From: Alphaproteobacteria bacterium
GTDB taxonomy: Bacteria; Pseudomonadota; Alphaproteobacteria; Bin95
Assembly: GCA_963665325.3 (NCBI GenBank)
Contig: OZ224045.1
Coordinates: 576,001 to 640,000 of the forward strand
DNA length: 64,000 nt
Direction: 5' to 3'
Notes under the pieces: generated by a model
What the model was told of the DNA's origin: nothing
Databases searched by the model: none
What the model saw: the letters and a program-made list of their open reading frames with translations, nothing else
Made by a program: the position numbers and the translations under genes
Part shown: positions 16,970 through 45,234 of the stretch, piece after piece
Layout of the letters: every line of letters begins with the position of its first letter
Numbering within the stretch: the stretch's first letter is position 1

Positions 16970-17383
16970 ATGCTGACCGTCAACCGCGCGACCCTGGTGG
17001 GCCATGCCGGGCGCGACCCCGAGATCCGCACCCTGCCGAACGGCGGCAAGGCGGCGGCCTTCCCGCTCGCCACCGCCGAAAAGTGGACCGACCGGGAAGG
17101 CAAGCCCGTGGAGGCCACCGACTGGCACCGGGTGGTCGTCTACGGCGCGTCCGTCGAGATCGTCGGGACCATGCTGCGCAAGGGCGATCCGGTCATGGTC
17201 GAGAGCCTGCCCCGGACTCGATCCGGGGGCCGCATCGCGACCCGGCAATACCGCGACCGCGACGACAACGACCGCACCGTCACCGAGATCGTCGTCGCCG
17301 GGCCGCAGGGCATGGTGAACATCCTCGCCGGGCGGCGCGGGTCGGAGTCCGGCCCGGAGTCCGGGGCGGGCGACGAAACATGA
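16970..17383 (+). CDS. ssb: Single-stranded DNA-binding protein inside the tra operon, with an 8-aa insert and no acidic IPF tip
   Basis: VNRATLVGHAGRDPEIR...TDWHRVV...LRKG. Confidence 0.9.
   Translation: MLTVNRATLVGHAGRDPEIRTLPNGGKAAAFPLATAEKWTDREGKPVEATDWHRVVVYGASVEIVGTMLRKGDPVMVESLPRTRSGGRIATRQYRDRDDNDRTVTEIVVAGPQGMVNILAGRRGSESGPESGAGDET
17204..17227. repeat. 24-bp REP-like palindromic insert in ssb (AGCCTGCCCCGGACTCGATCCGGG)
   Basis: Removing it restores the canonical V.VEGRI.TR motif. Confidence 0.88.
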
Positions 17384-20314: not shown

Positions 20315-21174
20315 TGGCGCGCGCCACGAACCCTGCCCTTCGGCGTGTCCTTGGACGCGTCCTCGCGGCGGTCGGCGTGTGGGCGGCGCTCGGTGCCTCG
20401 GTGGCGGGCGGGGAATGGCGGTCCTGGTGTGGGCAAGGTCCCGGATCAGGTCCGGGACAAGCGCCGGACTATCGTCCGTCGCTCGGCTGGCACTTCTACT
20501 GCGACCGGGAAGAGGAAGGGCAGGAAGCCGAACCGCAGCCGGTGCCGCGTTCCCCTGAACAGACCACCTCCGCGACGGAACGCATTCTGGAATTGCGCAA
20601 GACGCTGGAAGAGGCCCGCGCGGAGGCGATCCTCGATCCAACGCCGGCGAAGGTGGCGGCCTATCTGCGCCTCCAGCAGGAGGCGCTGCAACGGGCCGCG
20701 GCCTTCTCCGACACCTTCCGGCGCACGGTCTGGGCGAGCCCGGAGCTGGACTACACGCTGAAGCGCCCGGTCGGCGCGCTCGCCAAGCAGGTCTGGTCGG
20801 ACGAGCGAAGACAGGCCCGCGATGCCGCGCTGGCCCGTCTCGGGGACCGCTACGGCCTGATCTATCTGGGCCATGCCGGCTGTGCGGGCTGCAAGGTGTT
20901 CGGCCCGTTGCTGCGCGCCTTCGCGATGCGCCACGGCCTCGACGTGCTGGCCGTCTCGCTTAGCGGCGCGGCGCTGGAGGGCTGGCCGGAAGCGGTCGCC
21001 GACAATGGACGCGCCGCCCGGCTCGGTCTCGCGGGTACCCCGGTGCCGGCCCTGGTGCTGTTCGACACGAAGACGCGGCGCGTCCTGCCGGTCGGCTTCG
21101 GCGTTCTGGCCGAGGACGAGATGGCAGAGCGCATCTTCGCCCTCACCGCCCTGGAGCCCGGACATGACTATTGA
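20314..21174 (+). CDS. traF: TraF (thioredoxin-like)
   Basis: GWHFYCD; EAILDPT...YLRLQ; CAGC; VPALVL. Confidence 0.9.
   Translation: MARATNPALRRVLGRVLAAVGVWAALGASVAGGEWRSWCGQGPGSGPGQAPDYRPSLGWHFYCDREEEGQEAEPQPVPRSPEQTTSATERILELRKTLEEARAEAILDPTPAKVAAYLRLQQEALQRAAAFSDTFRRTVWASPELDYTLKRPVGALAKQVWSDERRQARDAALARLGDRYGLIYLGHAGCAGCKVFGPLLRAFAMRHGLDVLAVSLSGAALEGWPEAVADNGRAARLGLAGTPVPALVLFDTKTRRVLPVGFGVLAEDEMAERIFALTALEPGHDY
20440..20463. repeat. 24-bp REP-like palindromic insert in traF (CCCGGATCAGGTCCGGGACAAGCG)
   Basis: Same family; encodes PGSGPGQA. Confidence 0.78.
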
Positions 21175-39367: not shown

Positions 39368-40564
39368 CTATAGAACATCGGCGGCAATGCTGACCGCTAT
39401 CCTCTCAGCGGATTCCCTGACCGAGTCACGCGCGAGATGCGCATAGCGCGCGGTGGTTTCTATCCTGCGGTGGCCGAGCAGCCGGCCGATGATCGGCAGG
39501 CCCTCGCCGAGCGCCAGCGCCCTGGACGCGAACGAATGTCGAATGTCGTGGATGCGCACGTCATCCAGCCCGGCCTTCGCGCGGATGCTCTGCCACGCCC
39601 CATCGATGTCGGCCATGTGCGTGCCCGGCTTCGCGCCCGGAACGACCCACGGATTGTCCGGTTCGCGCGGCAGGGCCGCGAGCACGTTCACCGCCGCCGG
39701 CGACAGGTGGACCGTGCGGTCGCCAGTCTTCCCGTTGACGATGCGCATCTCCGCCCTGTCGAGATCGACATGCTTCCAGGGCAGGGTCATGATCTCGTTC
39801 TTGCGGCAGCCCGTCAGCATCAGCAGGCGGATCGTCGTGACCGCCCCCGCCGATACCTGGCTGCCGTTCCCCGACACCTCGTCGAGCACCTGCCCGAGGC
39901 GGGTGAACTCGGCGTCGGTCAGGAAGCGCTCGCGCTTCTTCTTCGGGTTCATTGGAATCGACCGGCACGGATCGTCGTGGTCCTCGGGGACCATGTCCCA
40001 GCCCTTGGCGAGCTTGTACATGTAGGTCAGGGTCTCGACGACCATGTTGGCCATGGCGGGGATTTCGCACAGGCTCTCGTGCAGCGCCATGACGTGGCGC
40101 CGCTCCACCGCCGCGATCGGCAGCTTGCCGAGCGCCGGCACGATGTGGCGGTTGACGACGCTGCGCGCGGTGCGCTGCGTCTTCGGCTTGCAGCGGGCCG
40201 CGACATGCTCTTCGAGATAGCGCCGCCCCAGGTCGGCGACGGTCGGCCCGCCGGCGTGTTTCGCAGGGAGCGGCAGGGGCACCGGATCCTCGCCGGCCTT
40301 GACGCGCGCGATGATGAGCGCGGCCCGCTGGCGCGCCTCGGTGGCGCTCAGCACCGGATGGCGCCCGACCGTGATGCGCCTCGGCCGGTTGGGCCTGCCC
40401 GGCCCGTCGGGACCGCGCGCCTGGGCGACGAAGACCTTGCCGCCGGTCGGGTATACCCGGACGCCGAAGCCGGTCAGGGTGCGGTCCCAGAACACCGTGT
40501 CGCGCTCGACGAAAAGCGCCTCCACCGTGCGGTTGGAGAGCGTCCTGTATTGCAGCACCGCCAT
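39368..40564 (-). CDS. int: Tyrosine integrase B2 with N-terminal arm-binding (DUF4102-like) domain
   Basis: WDRTLTGFGVRVYPTGGK; TGCRKNE; GKTG; HDIRHSFAS; LLGH...TTARYAH. Confidence 0.95.
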   Translation of the reverse strand: MAVLQYRTLSNRTVEALFVERDTVFWDRTLTGFGVRVYPTGGKVFVAQARGPDGPGRPNRPRRITVGRHPVLSATEARQRAALIIARVKAGEDPVPLPLPAKHAGGPTVADLGRRYLEEHVAARCKPKTQRTARSVVNRHIVPALGKLPIAAVERRHVMALHESLCEIPAMANMVVETLTYMYKLAKGWDMVPEDHDDPCRSIPMNPKKKRERFLTDAEFTRLGQVLDEVSGNGSQVSAGAVTTIRLLMLTGCRKNEIMTLPWKHVDLDRAEMRIVNGKTGDRTVHLSPAAVNVLAALPREPDNPWVVPGAKPGTHMADIDGAWQSIRAKAGLDDVRIHDIRHSFASRALALGEGLPIIGRLLGHRRIETTARYAHLARDSVRESAERIAVSIAADVL

Positions 40565-40576
40565 CGCCCGCGCCTC

Positions 40577-41761
40577 CTATGCCGCCTCGGCGTCCGGCGC
40601 CGCGAGGTGGGCGCCGATGCTGTCTCCGGTGCGCGCCGCGGCGGCCTTCTCCGCGTCGTGCACGAGATGCGCATACCGGGCGGTGGTGCCGACCTTGGAA
40701 TGGCCGAGTATGCGCCCGATCATCGTCAGGCTCTCGCCGAGGGCCAGCGCGCGCGAGGCGTGCGAATGACGAAGATCGTGGATGCGCACGCCCTCGATGC
40801 CGGCATGGTCCTTGATGCGGTTCCAGTAGTAGGTGAGGTCGGGCAGGCAGATGCCGGGCTTCTGGCTCGGGATGACCCACGGATTGCCTTCGACGCGCTC
40901 GATGCCGTCGAGCACCTTCAGGGCCGGCGTGGTCAGCGGCACCATGCGCGGGCCACGCTTGCCGTCGCGGAGCCGGAACTCGCCGGCGGTGTGGTCGACG
41001 TCGTCCCATCGGAGTGTGAGGATCTCGGACTTGCGGCAGCCGGTCAGCATCAGCAGCCGGATCGCGGCGATCGCCGGCGGCCACATCCAGCCTCCGGCCT
41101 CGGCTTCCCTGAGCGCCGCGCCGACGCGGCGGTACTCCTCCGCCGTCAAGAACCGCTCGCGGGCCTGCTCGCGGTAGTGCCGGACCATCCTGCAGGGATT
41201 GCGGCCGCGGGGCACCAGTTCCCATGTCTCGGCGAGCGAGAACATCTTCGAGAGCATCGAGACGACGTGGTTGGCCATCGAGGGCGTGTTGCGCAGGCGG
41301 TCGTGGAGCTCGATGACGTGGCTCGACCGCACGTCCTTCACCGCCATGGTTCCGAGCGCGGGGACGATGTGCCGGTCGATGGCGGTGCGGTAGAGCTTCT
41401 CCGTCTTCGGCTTGCAGTGGACCTTCACGTAGGCGCGCATCGCGCGCGCCGCGAGGTCGGCGACGGTGGGGTCCGGTTCCGGCTTCGGAGGCAGCGGCTC
41501 CAGTCCGCGCTTGATGCGGTCGATGACCTCGGCCGCCTCGCGGCGTCTCTGATCGATCGCCTTCCCGGGGACGGGTCCAAGGGTGACGCGCTTGAGGCCG
41601 GCGGGACCGCGCGACTGGACGACATAGACCTTGCGGCCGTTACGCTGGACGCGGACGCCGAAACCGGCGAGGTCGCGGTCCCAATGAACGGCGTCCCTGC
41701 CGGTCGCCGGCAGGGCGGCGACGCTGCGGGTGGTGAGGCGGAGGGTGCTTCTCTTCGGCAT
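40577..41761 (-). CDS. int: Tyrosine integrase A2 with arm-binding domain
   Basis: WDRDLAGFGVRV; TGCRKSE; HDLRHSHAS; LGH...TTARYAH. Confidence 0.95.
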   Translation of the reverse strand: MPKRSTLRLTTRSVAALPATGRDAVHWDRDLAGFGVRVQRNGRKVYVVQSRGPAGLKRVTLGPVPGKAIDQRRREAAEVIDRIKRGLEPLPPKPEPDPTVADLAARAMRAYVKVHCKPKTEKLYRTAIDRHIVPALGTMAVKDVRSSHVIELHDRLRNTPSMANHVVSMLSKMFSLAETWELVPRGRNPCRMVRHYREQARERFLTAEEYRRVGAALREAEAGGWMWPPAIAAIRLLMLTGCRKSEILTLRWDDVDHTAGEFRLRDGKRGPRMVPLTTPALKVLDGIERVEGNPWVIPSQKPGICLPDLTYYWNRIKDHAGIEGVRIHDLRHSHASRALALGESLTMIGRILGHSKVGTTARYAHLVHDAEKAAAARTGDSIGAHLAAPDAEAA

Positions 41762-41820
41762 GGCGGTCCCCGGGGTCGCGGCGGCTCGATTCGGCTCCGA
41801 ATTGGAAGGTTGCAAATTGA

Positions 41821-41889
41821 GTCATCAAACCGCAAACGAGCGGCATCAACCTGTGGGGATAGCCTAGGCCGGCTCTGGCCTCAATTCAA
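41821..41889 (-). promoter_or_regulatory. Sigma70 promoter of int A2 (TTGAAT-N17-TAGGCT) followed by TTGATG direct repeats 21 bp apart (putative arm sites)
   Basis: -35 at 41884-41889, -10 at 41861-41866; layout conserved with 44040-44107. Confidence 0.7.
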
Positions 41890-41937
41890 GGGGTCGTGGG
41901 TGCCGAGGAAAGACAAAAACCTATGTAAGACGCTAAG

Positions 41938-42810
41938 TTAGACCGCACATGGCCGCGATAGGAACCAGGAGGACGTGGCTGGCCGGGGGAAGAAAAAATC
42001 GCCTGTCTTAGAATCGGGAAGGCGCAACTCGCCGGCATCGAGATCGACGTCCGTCCAGCGCAGCGCGAGGACCTCGCCCTTGCGGCAGCCGGTCAGCATC
42101 AGCAGGCGGATCGCCGCCGCCGCCACGGGAGAGGCGGTTCCGGCCTCCACGGCCTCGTCCAGCGCCCGCCCGAGCCGGGTGAACTCGGCGTCGGTCAGGA
42201 AGCGCTCGCGGCCGCGCTCGGGATGTTTCTCGATCGACCGGCACGGGTTGCAGCCCGCCGGCACAAGGCCCCAGCCTTCGCCCAGACGGTACATGTGCGC
42301 CAGGGTCTTGACCGCCCGGTTGGCCGCCACCGGGCGGCCGCTCAGCCCGCGGTGCAGCTCGACGACCTGCCTGCGCTCCACCGCCTCGACCGGCAGCCGG
42401 CCGAGGGCGGGCAGGATATGGCGGCGCAGCACGCCGCGGAGCTTCGCCTGCGTCCTCGGCTTGAGCCGGACCTCGACATGATCCTCCAGATAACGGGCCG
42501 CAAGGTCGGCCACGGTCGGGCCGCCCCTGGCGCGGGCCGCGAGCGGCAGCGCCACCGGGTCCTCGCCCGCCTTGATGCGCGTGACGATCAGCGCCGCCCT
42601 CCGGCGCGCCTCGTCGGCGTTGAGCACGCCGTGCCGGCCCACCGTCACCCGCTTCGGCCCCTCCGGCCCCCGCGCCTGGGCGATATAGACCTTGCCGCCG
42701 GTCGGATAGACCCGGACCCCGAAGCCGGTCACGGTCCGGTCCCAGAACACCGTGTCGCGCTCGACCGTCATGGCCGCCACGGAGCGGTTGGAGATCGTCC
42801 TCTGCTGCAT
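41938..42810 (-). pseudogene. int: Tyrosine integrase B1 truncated right after the DSKTG motif (no HxxR or catalytic Tyr)
   Basis: Paralogous to B2 up to LRLPDSKTG (~42001), then unrelated sequence to a stop. Confidence 0.9.
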
Positions 42811-42821
42811 CGCCGTTCCCC

Positions 42822-44006
42822 TCACGCCGCCTCGGCGTCGCCGGGCATGATCCAGGCGGCGATGCTGCCGCCGGTCCGGGCGGCCGCCGCCTTCTCGGCG
42901 TCGCGCACCAGGTGGGCGTATTTCGCGGTGGTGCCGACCCGGGCATGGCCGAGCAGGCGCCCGATGACCGGCAGGCCCTCGCCGAGCGCCAGCGCCCGGC
43001 TGGCGTAGGAGTGACGGCAGTCGTGGAGCCGCACGTCATGGAGCCCCGTCGCCTTCCTGACCCGCCGCCAGTGCCAGGACAGGCAGGCCAGACGGCTCTG
43101 CGGCTTCGCCCCCCTGAGCACCCAGGGAACGCCGTCCTCCCGCTCGATGCCGTCCAGCACCTTCAGCACCGGCCCGGTCAGCGGCACCATGCGCGGGCCC
43201 GTTTTCGAGTCGCGGAGCCGCAAGACCCGCGCCGCGCGGTCGATGTCGTCCCATTGCAGGGTCAGGATCTCGTCCGAGCGGCAGCCGGTCAGCATCAGCA
43301 GGCGGATCGCCGCGATGGCGGAGGGCTGCATCGAGCCCTCGGCCTCGAAGGTCTTCAGCACATCGCCGATGAGCCGGAACTCGTCCGGCGTCAGGAAGCG
43401 CTCGCGGGGCGTCTCGCGGTACTGGCGGACATGCCGGCAGGGGTTGCATCCGGGCGGGACCATCTCCCAGCTCTCGGCCAGCGCGAACATCTTCGAGAGC
43501 ACCCAGATCGCCTGGTTGGCCGCCGCCGGCGTATCGCGCAGTCCGTGGTGGAGCCCCGCCGCGTCTTCCGGCGCGACGTCCTTCAGCGCCTTGCTCCCCA
43601 GCGCCGGCAGGATGTGGCGCTCGATGGACATGCGGTAGTTCTTCGCCGTCCTCGGCTTGCAGCGCGCGGCGACATGGTCCTTCAGGCAGAGTGCCGCCAG
43701 GTCGGCGACGGTGGGCTCGGGCGCCGGTTCCGGCTGCTTCGGGTCCTCGCCCCGCTTGATGCGGTCGATGGCCGCCGCCGCCTCGCGGCGGCGCTCCTCC
43801 ACAGTCTTCTCACCGGCCGGCCCGAGCGTCGCCCGCTTCAGGCCTGCCGGTCCCCTCGACTGGACGATGTAGAGCTTGCGCCCGGTGGCGTGGACCCTGA
43901 CCCCAAAGCCGGCGAGGTCGCGGTCCCAGAAGATGGCGTCCTTGCCGCCGGGCTTGAGCCCGTCCACAATCCGCTTGGTCAGCCTGAGGGTGCTCCGTTT
44001 CGGCAT
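42822..44006 (-). CDS. int: Tyrosine integrase A1 with arm-binding domain
   Basis: Same length as A2 (394 aa) and same MPKRSTLRLT start; TGCRSDE; DSKTG; HDCRHSYAS; LLGH...TTAKYAH. Confidence 0.95.
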   Translation of the reverse strand: MPKRSTLRLTKRIVDGLKPGGKDAIFWDRDLAGFGVRVHATGRKLYIVQSRGPAGLKRATLGPAGEKTVEERRREAAAAIDRIKRGEDPKQPEPAPEPTVADLAALCLKDHVAARCKPRTAKNYRMSIERHILPALGSKALKDVAPEDAAGLHHGLRDTPAAANQAIWVLSKMFALAESWEMVPPGCNPCRHVRQYRETPRERFLTPDEFRLIGDVLKTFEAEGSMQPSAIAAIRLLMLTGCRSDEILTLQWDDIDRAARVLRLRDSKTGPRMVPLTGPVLKVLDGIEREDGVPWVLRGAKPQSRLACLSWHWRRVRKATGLHDVRLHDCRHSYASRALALGEGLPVIGRLLGHARVGTTAKYAHLVRDAEKAAAARTGGSIAAWIMPGDAEAA

Positions 44007-44039
44007 CGCCGCGCTCCGTCCCGAAATGCCCGCATATCG

Positions 44040-44107
44040 GTCATCAAACCGCATACGGACGACATCAAATCGGGGGCGATTGAAGGCGATGCTTGGCGGG
44101 AAGTCAA
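44040..44107 (-). promoter_or_regulatory. Sigma70 promoter of int A1 (TTGACT-N17-TTCAAT) followed by TTGATG direct repeats 21 bp apart
   Basis: -35 at 44102-44107, -10 at 44079-44084; GTCATCAAACCGCA is shared with 41821. Confidence 0.7.
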
Positions 44108-44214
44108 GGGTTCGGATGCCGGTGAGGACAGAAAAATACCATACATTACAACACTCTTTCACAATCGTGACACTGGACGGCGGGCGGCGGCAGTGATTGG
44201 CAACAATTCAATGC

Positions 44215-44259
44215 GACCCCGGCTCAAGTCCGGGGTGACAGTTAGGAGGCCGGGGTGAC
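44215..44259. repeat. REP-like palindrome GACCCCGGCTCAAGTCCGGGGTGAC plus a partial second copy
   Basis: CCCCGG-N7-CCGGGG-TGAC; CCGGGGTGAC is repeated at 44250-44259. Confidence 0.75.
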
Positions 44260-44293
44260 GGTTTTGGGGGCCGGGGCCAGGCTTCGGGAACTT

Positions 44294-44333
44294 CTTCATC
44301 CCGCGTAGCGGCGCAGCCGCGTATCGGGGGATG
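44294..44333. repeat. Degenerate second-family alphaproteobacterial palindromic repeat (TCATCC...GCGGCGCAGCCGCGT.TCG..GGATG)
   Basis: Nested palindrome downstream of the citE-like gene; family resemblance recalled from memory. Confidence 0.5.
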
Positions 44334-44343
44334 CGCCGCCGCC

Positions 44344-45234
44344 CTACCCCGCGCCCGCCCGCTCCGCCAGCGCCAGCACATGGCGGGCGGCCTTGAGGTG
44401 CGGCATGTCCAGCATCTTGCCGTCCAGCCCGACGGTTCCGGCCCCGCCGGCGTTCTCCATCGCTTCCACGACGCGCCGGGCATGGGCGATTTCGTCTTCG
44501 GTGGGCGCATAGGCGCTGTTGATCGGATCGACCTGCGCCGGGTGGATGGCCACCTTGCCGGTAAAGCCTGTCTTGCGACCCTGCAGCGCCTCGGCGTGCA
44601 GGCCGTCGAGGTCCCGGAAGTCGGGATAGACCGAGTCCACCGGCTCCGTGCCAGCTGCCTTGCATGCCGCCAGGCAGAGCGCGCGCGCTAACCGGTACAC
44701 GTCCTCATACTCGCCGTCAGGCGCTCGGTTGGTCGAGGCTCCGAGCGCCGCCGAGAGGTCCTCCGCACCCCAGGTCATGCCGTAGATGCGCGAGCTTGCG
44801 CCGGTGAAGCTGTCCATCGTGAAGAGCGAACGCGCCGTCTCGGTGGCGACGACGAGGATTTGCGTGGCTCCGGGCGCGACCTCTTCCCGCGTTTCCAGGG
44901 CCGAGAGATAGTTGTCGAGCCTGACGGCCTCGGCAGCGGAAAAGGTCTTCGGCAGCACGATCCCGTCCGGCGCGCCGGCCATCACGGCCGCGAGGTCCGG
45001 CAGCGCCAGTTCGGTGTCGAGCGGGTTGATCCTGACCCATAGCTGCTGGCTGCGGTCGTCCCGGTTGGCTTCCAGCCGTTCCCGGACCATCTGCCGCGCC
45101 ACGGGCAGGTTGGACTGCGCAACGGAATCCTCAAGGTCGAGGATCAGCGCGTCGGCCGGCACGCCGCGCGCCTTTTCGAATTTGCGCGCGCTGTCGCCCG
45201 GCACGAACAGAAAGCATCTGAGCGCGTCGGTCAT
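44344..45234 (-). CDS. CitE/HpcH-family CoA-ester lyase
   Basis: LFVPGDS...ADALILDLEDSV; WVRINP; GAEDL; GKVAIHPAQ; LDGKMLDMPH. Confidence 0.92.
   Translation of the reverse strand: MTDALRCFLFVPGDSARKFEKARGVPADALILDLEDSVAQSNLPVARQMVRERLEANRDDRSQQLWVRINPLDTELALPDLAAVMAGAPDGIVLPKTFSAAEAVRLDNYLSALETREEVAPGATQILVVATETARSLFTMDSFTGASSRIYGMTWGAEDLSAALGASTNRAPDGEYEDVYRLARALCLAACKAAGTEPVDSVYPDFRDLDGLHAEALQGRKTGFTGKVAIHPAQVDPINSAYAPTEDEIAHARRVVEAMENAGGAGTVGLDGKMLDMPHLKAARHVLALAERAGAG

Follow-up and report, generated by a model that had tools for sequence, protein, structure and literature searches.

The stretch of DNA considered here, hereafter the window, comprises 64,000 nucleotides (C1:576001-640000) of the 5.58-Mb alphaproteobacterial genome G000, which is assembled in five contigs, C1-C5; related genomes are cited as G001-G016, and integrase loci in the compared genomes by L codes. 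The window has a GC content of 70%. Pfam analysis revealed that positions 1-42006 consist of F-type conjugative element DNA, the genes of the type IV secretion system (T4SS) and the relaxase being followed by ssb, an HU-like gene, hicAB and then by four integrase genes on the minus strand, which are the subject of this report. To the right of the integrases lie host genes specifying an HpcH-family lyase, a MaoC hydratase and a GST. As the original prediction from the sequence had noted, the window contains no tRNA gene detectable by a tRNA search, and ARAGORN found none in 34 related loci. The four integrase genes, with the displaced end of one of them, are as follows (Pfam with alignment or, for B1, with tblastn):

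39368-40564, minus strand: integrase B2, intact; Arm-DNA-bind_3, SAM-like and catalytic domains, residues R-K-H-R-H-H-Y
40577-41761, minus strand: integrase A2, intact; its own lysine motif is D-G-K-R-G
42007-42810, minus strand: 5' part of integrase B1; the frame continues into element DNA, with a stop at 41938
C1:574988-575380, about 620 bp left of the window: 3' part of integrase B1
42822-44006, minus strand: integrase A1 of an outer element, intact

All four proteins possess the P4-type domain order (Arm-DNA-bind_3, SAM-like, Phage_integrase), the Arm-DNA-bind_3 / DUF4102 matches having E-values of 4.4e-9 (A1), 2.7e-7 (A2), 6.3e-9 (B1) and 8.4e-11 (B2). The catalytic domain (R-K-H-R-H-Y) is complete in A1, A2 and B2, and split in B1. 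Genes B2 and A2 are separated by 12 bp (40564 to 40577) and do not overlap; A1 and A2 share 63% identity and their arms are colinear. The relatives recovered in a protein search with the integrases were all below 60% identity and annotated as "site-specific integrase", and megablast of the integrase region gave no match to the PLSDB plasmids. A promoter scan of 41700-44400 found no sigma-70-like site, other promoter types being still possible.

The A2/B2 element and the B1 integrase gene

That B1 is cut off had been read from the sequence, and this was borne out: its 5' part covers positions 2-64 of the 172-position Phage_integrase profile, and its homology to a 96%-identical copy stops within the codons P-D-S-K-T-G (42001-42018). 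The missing end was located by whole-genome tblastn where the original prediction had proposed to look, left of the window and preceded by a copy of the core, and covers profile positions 68-170 (E-value=1.8e-15). A distance of 42.6 kb separates the two halves of B1, with a full set of T4SS, relaxase and integrase genes between them. The features of this insertion are:

1-42006, minus strand: window part of the nested A2/B2 integrative and conjugative element (ICE), the whole being C1:575369-618006, about 42.65 kb, with its start 631 bp left of the window (Pfam, junctions, second copy on C3)
41762-42006, minus strand: integrase-proximal arm of the A2/B2 ICE; GC 0.585 (sequence comparison)
42007-42021, minus strand: attR copy of the 15-bp core, reading CTTCCCGATTCTAAG on the minus strand, codons L-P-D-S-K (junction comparison)
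C1:575354-575368: partner copy of the 15-bp core (junction comparison)

Since the 3' part of B1 and a second core copy lie left of the window, the A2/B2 element is a complete 42.65-kb F-type ICE nested in B1. Its gene set includes TraE, TraV, TraC, TrbI, TraW, TraU, TraN, TraH, TraG (TraG_N), a TrwB-type coupling protein and a TrwC relaxase (Pfam); mating-pair formation genes, coupling protein and relaxase are thus accompanied by a duplicated core and by an intact B1-type gene elsewhere in the genome. B1, divided by the insertion, has lost its H-x-x-R, H and Y residues, so that the proposal that the A2/B2 element entered and disabled a resident integrase stands.

The duplicated core, CTTAGAATCGGGAAG at 42007-42021, is identical at 13 of its 15 positions in the two copies and specifies L-P-D-x-K. 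The integrase-strand sequence is GCGCCTTCCCGATTCTAAGACAGGCGATTTTTTC at the right junction and TTTTCGTCTTCCCGATGCGAAGTCCGGTCCCC at the left, while the intact 96%-identical gene, B1' of the A1'/B1' pair on the overlapping C5/C3 ends, reads GCCTTCCCGATTCGAAGTCCGGCCCCC. B1 and B1' are colinear up to the codons P-D-S-K (42018-42007), after which element DNA follows. The 17-bp palindrome at 42002-42018 that had been put forward as the att core does overlap the true junction at these codons, but its CCTG end is element DNA, and it is therefore a hybrid of target and element sequence rather than a native palindrome. The arm contains the conserved blocks GTCATCAAACCG..CATCAA and TCAAGGG, both shared with the arm of A1, and the AT-richness claimed for the integrase-proximal arms was found in both (GC 0.585 and 0.552 vs 0.70 for the window).

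A second copy of this ICE is present on C3, with integrase genes 100% identical and the last 7.6 kb 98.6% identical to those of the window copy. Its two element ends are the same, but the integrase that it splits is another one, belonging as first gene to a tandem pair of a different kind; this gene is cut after ..H-L-P-D-T-K-T-G and its 3' part lies 52.5 kb off. Near the left end of the C3 copy are two tandem 3.4-kb copies of an IS66-family insertion sequence (IS).

Orthologues of A2 within the genus occur in G016 (90% and 84% identity) and G011 (four copies, 95-97%), with a sister lineage in G008 (61%). Both G016 copies and the G008 element adjoin the 5' parts of three further integrase genes, oriented in the same direction as A and ending in ..P-D-T-K-T-G, ..R-D-S-K-T-G and ..P-D-T-K-T-G. 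All five readable integrase-side junctions of A2-type elements, involving five different integrase genes in three genomes (G000, G016, G008), are thus at D-x-K-T-G codons. At the distal end, four of the six readable junctions (the two copies in G000 and the four in G011) are next to integrase 3' parts starting K-T/S-G-P-R, two of the four G011 left ends adjoining 3' parts that start K-T-G-P-R-T; in G016 the left-end query gave no match, and its distal junctions are outside this count. The bases common to all A2-type cores are CT..., GAY, ... and AAG, the nine bases between CTT and AAG being variable, and some target sites read AAGACGGGG rather than AAGTCCGG. Judged from these junction sequences, the conserved lysine-motif codons of the P4-type integrase genes of other elements are the normal attB of A2-type elements. 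The A2-type A genes themselves specify D-G-K-R-G in four of four cases (40950-40975 in the window) vs D-x-K-T/S-G in the target genes, a version which may, speculatively, shield the integrase of the ICE from insertion by the ICE itself.

About 3 kb left of the window, at C1:572917-573042, is an orphan integrase C-terminal remnant of 42 amino acids, 64% identical to the end of B2 and overlapping, in a different reading frame, the 3' end of a DEAD-box helicase gene. From its sequence it may be the relic of an earlier nested insertion.

The outer element and its palindromic target

On the other side of A1 the following features were defined:

44007-44216, minus strand: integrase-proximal arm of the outer A1/B1 element; GC 0.552 (sequence comparison)
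44217-44235: attR core of the outer element, CCCCGG-CTCAAGT-CCGGGG (junction comparison)
44236-44343: host intergenic DNA with the rest of a repetitive extragenic palindromic (REP) unit (TGAC, repeated CCGGGGTGAC-type units) and a second dispersed repeat (sequence comparison)
C1:437131-437149: attL partner core of the outer element (empty-site comparison)

The REP core CCCGGCTCAAGTCCGGG is present at 44218-44234, where, as had been stated, ICE sequence gives way to host sequence; homology between two A1-type right arms stops exactly at 44234. A scan with the generic pattern near the expected left end of the outer element found no core, and attL was located through the empty site in the relative G005. 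There 217 bp separate the host flanks, and this interval, upstream of the HpcH-lyase gene, contains an intact inverted pair of palindromes; in G000 the same flanks are 183 kb apart. The right-hand palindrome in G005 reads CCCCGGATCAAGTCCGGGGTGAC, the sequence of the intact repeat, and the outer attR and attL read CCCCGGCTCAAGTCCGGGGTGAC and CCCCGGATCAAAGCCGGAGCATG, respectively. In G000 the left palindrome comes next after the left host flank (C1:436065-437051), and CCCCGGATCAAAGCCGGAGCATG follows at 437131, the start of element DNA. The second REP-like core expected further out therefore exists, 183 kb to the left, and the outer element spans C1:437131-620235 (183 kb), with the host HpcH-lyase gene beyond its right end. 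This span also holds the T4SS genes of the outer ICE itself (C1:501-540 kb) and cargo. With B1 deprived of its H-x-x-R, H and Y residues and an IS in the left arm, the outer element is probably fixed in place.

The palindrome belongs to a dispersed but small family. The strict core CCCCGG-N-TCAA-NN-CCGG occurs seven times in the genome, two copies flanking the 183-kb insert in direct order, and sites of the repeat family number 9, 12 and 13 at 0, 1 and 2 mismatches vs 0, 0 and 3-6 in four Markov-simulated genomes. Its inverted pairs are 63-102 bp apart. No match to RAYT (PF01797) was found in G000, control genomes being matched, and for lack of such a gene the repeat is named "REP-like". Between the palindrome and the lyase gene, at 44265-44345, a second short repeat has dozens of matches, 81-94% identical, in genomes throughout the genus.

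G000 has two additional A1-type elements, each bounded at both ends by the right-hand palindrome of an inverted pair, of a second subfamily; one is 45.9 kb long and lies across C5/C3, and the other (C1:903386-918675) is 15 kb long and decayed. An A1-clade element in each of G013 and G002 has one junction in the same palindrome. Orientation is constant in five of five cases, the outer TGAC-side flank being beside the integrase end. With attL and attR, an empty site in G005 and these four further A1-type junctions, the part of the original prediction that placed the outer element in a REP-like palindrome rather than a tRNA gene was confirmed. The contig starts C3:1-9516 and C5:1-9517 are reverse-complement copies of each other at 99.99% identity (a 9.5-kb overlap), and C3 and C5 probably join at these ends, across an A1-type ICE.

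Two palindromes within genes of the A2/B2 ICE had also been singled out as in-frame inserts:

17203-17226, plus strand: 24-bp in-frame insert with a REP-like palindrome in the ssb-like gene of the ICE (comparison of homologous copies)
20440-20456, plus strand: REP-like palindrome CCCGGATCAGGTCCGGG in a variable part of the tra gene previously called traF (pattern scan, alignment)

The former is an insert, present in two of seven homologous genome copies (those of the window and of C3) and missing from the other five. The latter is not clearly one, as it was seen in one of five aligned copies, in a variable stretch.

Within the outer element, at C1:437-496 kb, were found an IS66-family IS, a group II intron (reverse transcriptase and maturase) that two XerC-like recombinase genes interrupt, and about 43 kb of Mu-like prophage, whose Mu F-like protein bears an ART domain. 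A cargo block of lower GC (46-63%) at C1:564000-572500 contains two radical-SAM genes, a MauG-like di-haem peroxidase and DUF4365/DUF3800 genes.

Integrase clades and the origin of the nested arrangement

The tree and the residue alignment were based on 41 integrase sequences. The A clade (support 100/100) and the B clade (98/96) are separate and their internal branching is mirrored; single-gene relatives and one further tandem pair (G005, L031) fall outside both, and "group II" tandem pairs form the outgroup. The residues R-K-H-R-H-H-Y are kept in 38 of the 41 sequences, and A and B genes are 12-60 bp apart in every clade. Pairs detected at E <= 1e-80 are present in 14 of 16 other genomes of the genus and in none of 20 genomes of two sister genera, while at E <= 1e-100 the 301 genomes sampled from the class include 11 with matches, one of them G000, and tandem pairs occur in at least two other families.

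The class of target tracks the clade: A1 elements are at the palindrome, and A2 elements with their G008 sister at lysine-motif codons. In a third clade, A3, three of five readable junctions (G000 C4:37351-81070, G004, G007) are at the H-D-x-R-H (H-x-x-R-H) codons of integrase genes, in the opposite direction; a rule that A3 enters integrase genes only was rejected, the other two junctions adjoining DNA-methylase-like genes. The A3/B3 ICE of G000 (about 43.7 kb, C4:37183-82060), its third, lies within the H-D-L-R-H codons of a group-II integrase, this integrase being a chimera of a first and a second gene. Single integrases adjoin tRNA-like 3' halves, as read from the sequence (ARAGORN calls no gene there), or the A-V-D-I-G-G-T codons of a gene start. 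Three specificities are found among integrases 56-66% identical.

The arrangement in the window is very probably the product of two nested site-specific integrations by tyrosine recombinases, in which the attB of A2-type elements is the lysine-motif codons of integrase genes and that of A1-type elements is the REP-like palindrome. An older F-type ICE with tandem A1/B1 would first have entered the right-hand palindrome of an inverted REP-like pair upstream of the HpcH-lyase gene; a 42.65-kb F-type ICE with the paralogous A2/B2 would then have entered the L-P-D-x-K codons of B1, in the same direction as B1. In each case A and B may jointly recombine the joined ends of the element with the target by way of a short core common to the two, with AT-rich arms on either side. 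The arm-binding domains would bind the repeated GGT(K)TGAT(K)AC-like blocks that are present in both arms, and the HU/IHF-like protein encoded by the ICE may assist by bending the DNA.

Several observations weigh against this reading. One A1-clade element (G001, L027) lacks a palindrome where one was expected. The left arms of the outer element (C1:437140) and of the 15-kb element (C1:903386) share 99% identity, but their right arms are different, so that the 183-kb span may be a hybrid of two A1-type elements. Two of the six distal A2-type junctions, both in G011, adjoin non-integrase DNA, though a core-like L-T-D-x-K-T-G is kept, and in all four G011 copies an IS lies about 30 bp upstream of A2, which places their integrase-side junctions outside the count. 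In the C3 copy and in one G011 copy, the distal core agrees with neither partner if a simple one-point crossover is assumed. Five loci of other families have no integrase fragment within 1.4 kb upstream, three of them being displaced by IS. Joined ends or a restored attB were not seen in the assembled contigs of public runs, in which fragmented paralogue contigs over 41000-43000 (four runs) permit no inference either way; one contig end (run X16, at 42014) reads like an uninterrupted B1-type gene and is a lead only. Lastly, both cores have symmetric arms (CCCCGG/CCGGGG and CTT/AAG), which seem not to fit an XerC/XerD-like division of half-sites and would argue against such sharing between A and B.

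As to the division of labour, we lean, by a small measure, towards A and B acting as one heteromeric enzyme. A possible, if rather doubtful, alternative is that only A or only B integrates and excises, the other having a separate task such as multimer resolution, control of direction or use of a second site. The symmetry of the core arms is what one protein species acting on both half-sites would call for, and lone P4-type integrases of the same superfamily are known to suffice. Against it stand the co-divergence of A and B as mirrored clades, the retention of all catalytic residues in both, their close pairing, at 12-60 bp in every clade, and the case of Tn554, which according to the portion of PMC3414803 available requires both of its adjacent recombinases.

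The original prediction had gone further in proposing that all pairs recognise a single REP-type palindrome, CCYG-N9-CGGG, which the codons of B1 merely mimic. The hybrid 17-mer and the REP core do agree at about 11 of 18 aligned positions, AAGTCCGG is common to the intact B1-type site and the REP core, and A1 and A2 are similar in sequence and in the layout of their arms. This rule is nevertheless very improbable. As a generic core the motif is at chance level, with 31 matches vs 29.76 +/- 7.38 expected, 44 of 100 shuffles reaching 31. Five different integrase genes in three genomes were entered at the same codons by A2-type elements, some at sites with AAGACGGGG in place of AAGTCCGG; no A2-type junction was found in a REP and no A1-type junction in an integrase gene. 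Nor is there a core common to both sites, since sequence and symmetry differ, CTT-N9-AAG vs CCCCGG-N7-CCGGGG, and so do the duplicated segments themselves (15-bp CTT-N9-AAG vs CCCCGG-N7-CCGG). That B1 was instead broken by homologous recombination or another rearrangement among integrase paralogues has next to no likelihood, for although some 50 places in the genome match these integrases, the group-II chimera on C4 exists and the ICE copies are mosaic (74-99% identity), the halves of B1 flank one complete ICE with the codon register kept and a 15-bp core duplicated, and the same element ends adjoin unrelated integrase genes on C3, in G016 and in G011.

Taking the nested site-specific integrations as the working explanation, a wider scheme may tentatively be suggested, in which a genus-wide radiation of F-type ICEs with co-evolving tandem integrases switched landing sites repeatedly, and two of its clades aim at the catalytic-motif codons of integrase genes (D-x-K-T-G, and H-x-x-R-H in the opposite direction), locking competitors in place and building very large composite islands. 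If this were true, an incoming ICE would have a harmless site wherever a relative resides, and would destroy the recombinase of the resident at once.

Two further features of these integrase loci were recorded. The "group II" tandem pair is present in 12 copies in G000 (C1:777262, 1199274, 1253196, 1508211, 1687421 and 1787094; C3:694758 and 1065270; C4:14176, 1030405 and 1089532; C5:262952), with an integrase-side end of GCACC-N3/4-GGTGC-TAAC... beside diverse host DNA, and at the junction the sequence ACACC(G/A)-N6-7 is found in eight of the 12 host flanks. In many elements, from at least seven genomes and with other families included, an IS66-family element with a DruA/DUF4338 accessory gene, or a miniature inverted-repeat transposable element (MITE) of about 121 bp with the same ends (GGAAAGCGTTCGGTCA...), lies about 30 bp upstream of the start of the A integrase (L008 at C3:9250-9370, L020, L035, L049, L050, L029, L031, L038, L042, L063-L065, L073 and L074). 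Contig ends of run X18 show this IS/MITE site at 41788/41789 of the window, which is a lead only.

Comparison with known systems

Integrases of the P4/SXT type are usually single, and their usual targets are the 3' ends of tRNA or tmRNA genes or one housekeeping gene. The present pairs resemble these integrases of ICEs and genomic islands in domain order, in the position of the gene at one end of the element, in the AT-rich arms and in the short duplicated core. They are unlike them in being two tandem paralogues, and in that their targets are a dispersed palindrome or the integrase gene of another element, and no tRNA gene.

Adjacent, co-inherited paralogues that all carry catalytic motifs are also found in XerC/XerD, Tn554 TnpA/TnpB, RIT, GInt and SE, as far as the available portions of the literature describe them. 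To our knowledge, the recombinases of these systems have no P4-type arm-binding domain. Tn554-type tandems and RIT trios, the latter consisting of three adjacent overlapping recombinase genes, are described in the accessible part of PMC3414803, in which BIM modules hold one recombinase only; multi-recombinase elements are also treated in the portions seen of PMC5385486 and PMC10214605. The pairs described here differ from RIT in having two genes with a 12-bp gap vs three that overlap, and from Tn554 in that the latter is a transposon and not a conjugative element. In the accessible parts of the Xer, Tn554, RIT, GInt and SE literature, no targeting of integrase genes is reported.

Site-specific entry of one element into another, giving a composite island, is likewise a feature of nested or accreted ICEs, such as Tn1806 in ICEs of the ICESa2603 family and the tripartite ICEs of Mesorhizobium (PMC12942858, PMC5882170, in the portions available). 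Unlike these, as they are described there, the A2/B2 ICE has as its target the integrase gene of the resident, at catalytic-motif codons, and the resident loses its recombinase.

The insertion sequences IS1397, ISKpn1, ISPpu9/10 and IS621 target REP sequences and possess DDE or DEDD transposases. The A1-type elements resemble them in using a short dispersed palindrome as the landing site and are unlike them in that a P4-type tyrosine integrase pair puts a large ICE into the palindrome, in fixed orientation (5/5 junctions). In the full-text literature searched, most subscription journals being outside its coverage, neither an ICE with integrase genes as its target nor a tyrosine-recombinase ICE with REP-like repeats as its target was reported. 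The parts of the present system (P4-type integrases, an F-type ICE, a dispersed palindrome) are ordinary; within the literature searched, their combination is not.

The usual landing sites of ICEs are tRNA genes or single housekeeping genes. A dispersed REP-like palindrome provides many possible sites per genome, and a target in integrase codons spares the host, requires a resident element and disables it. Such entry is a simple means by which composite islands may grow step by step, here to 183 kb, and offers a testable case of conflict between mobile elements, and paired P4-type integrases provide a compact system in which to study how the duplication of a recombinase changes target specificity.

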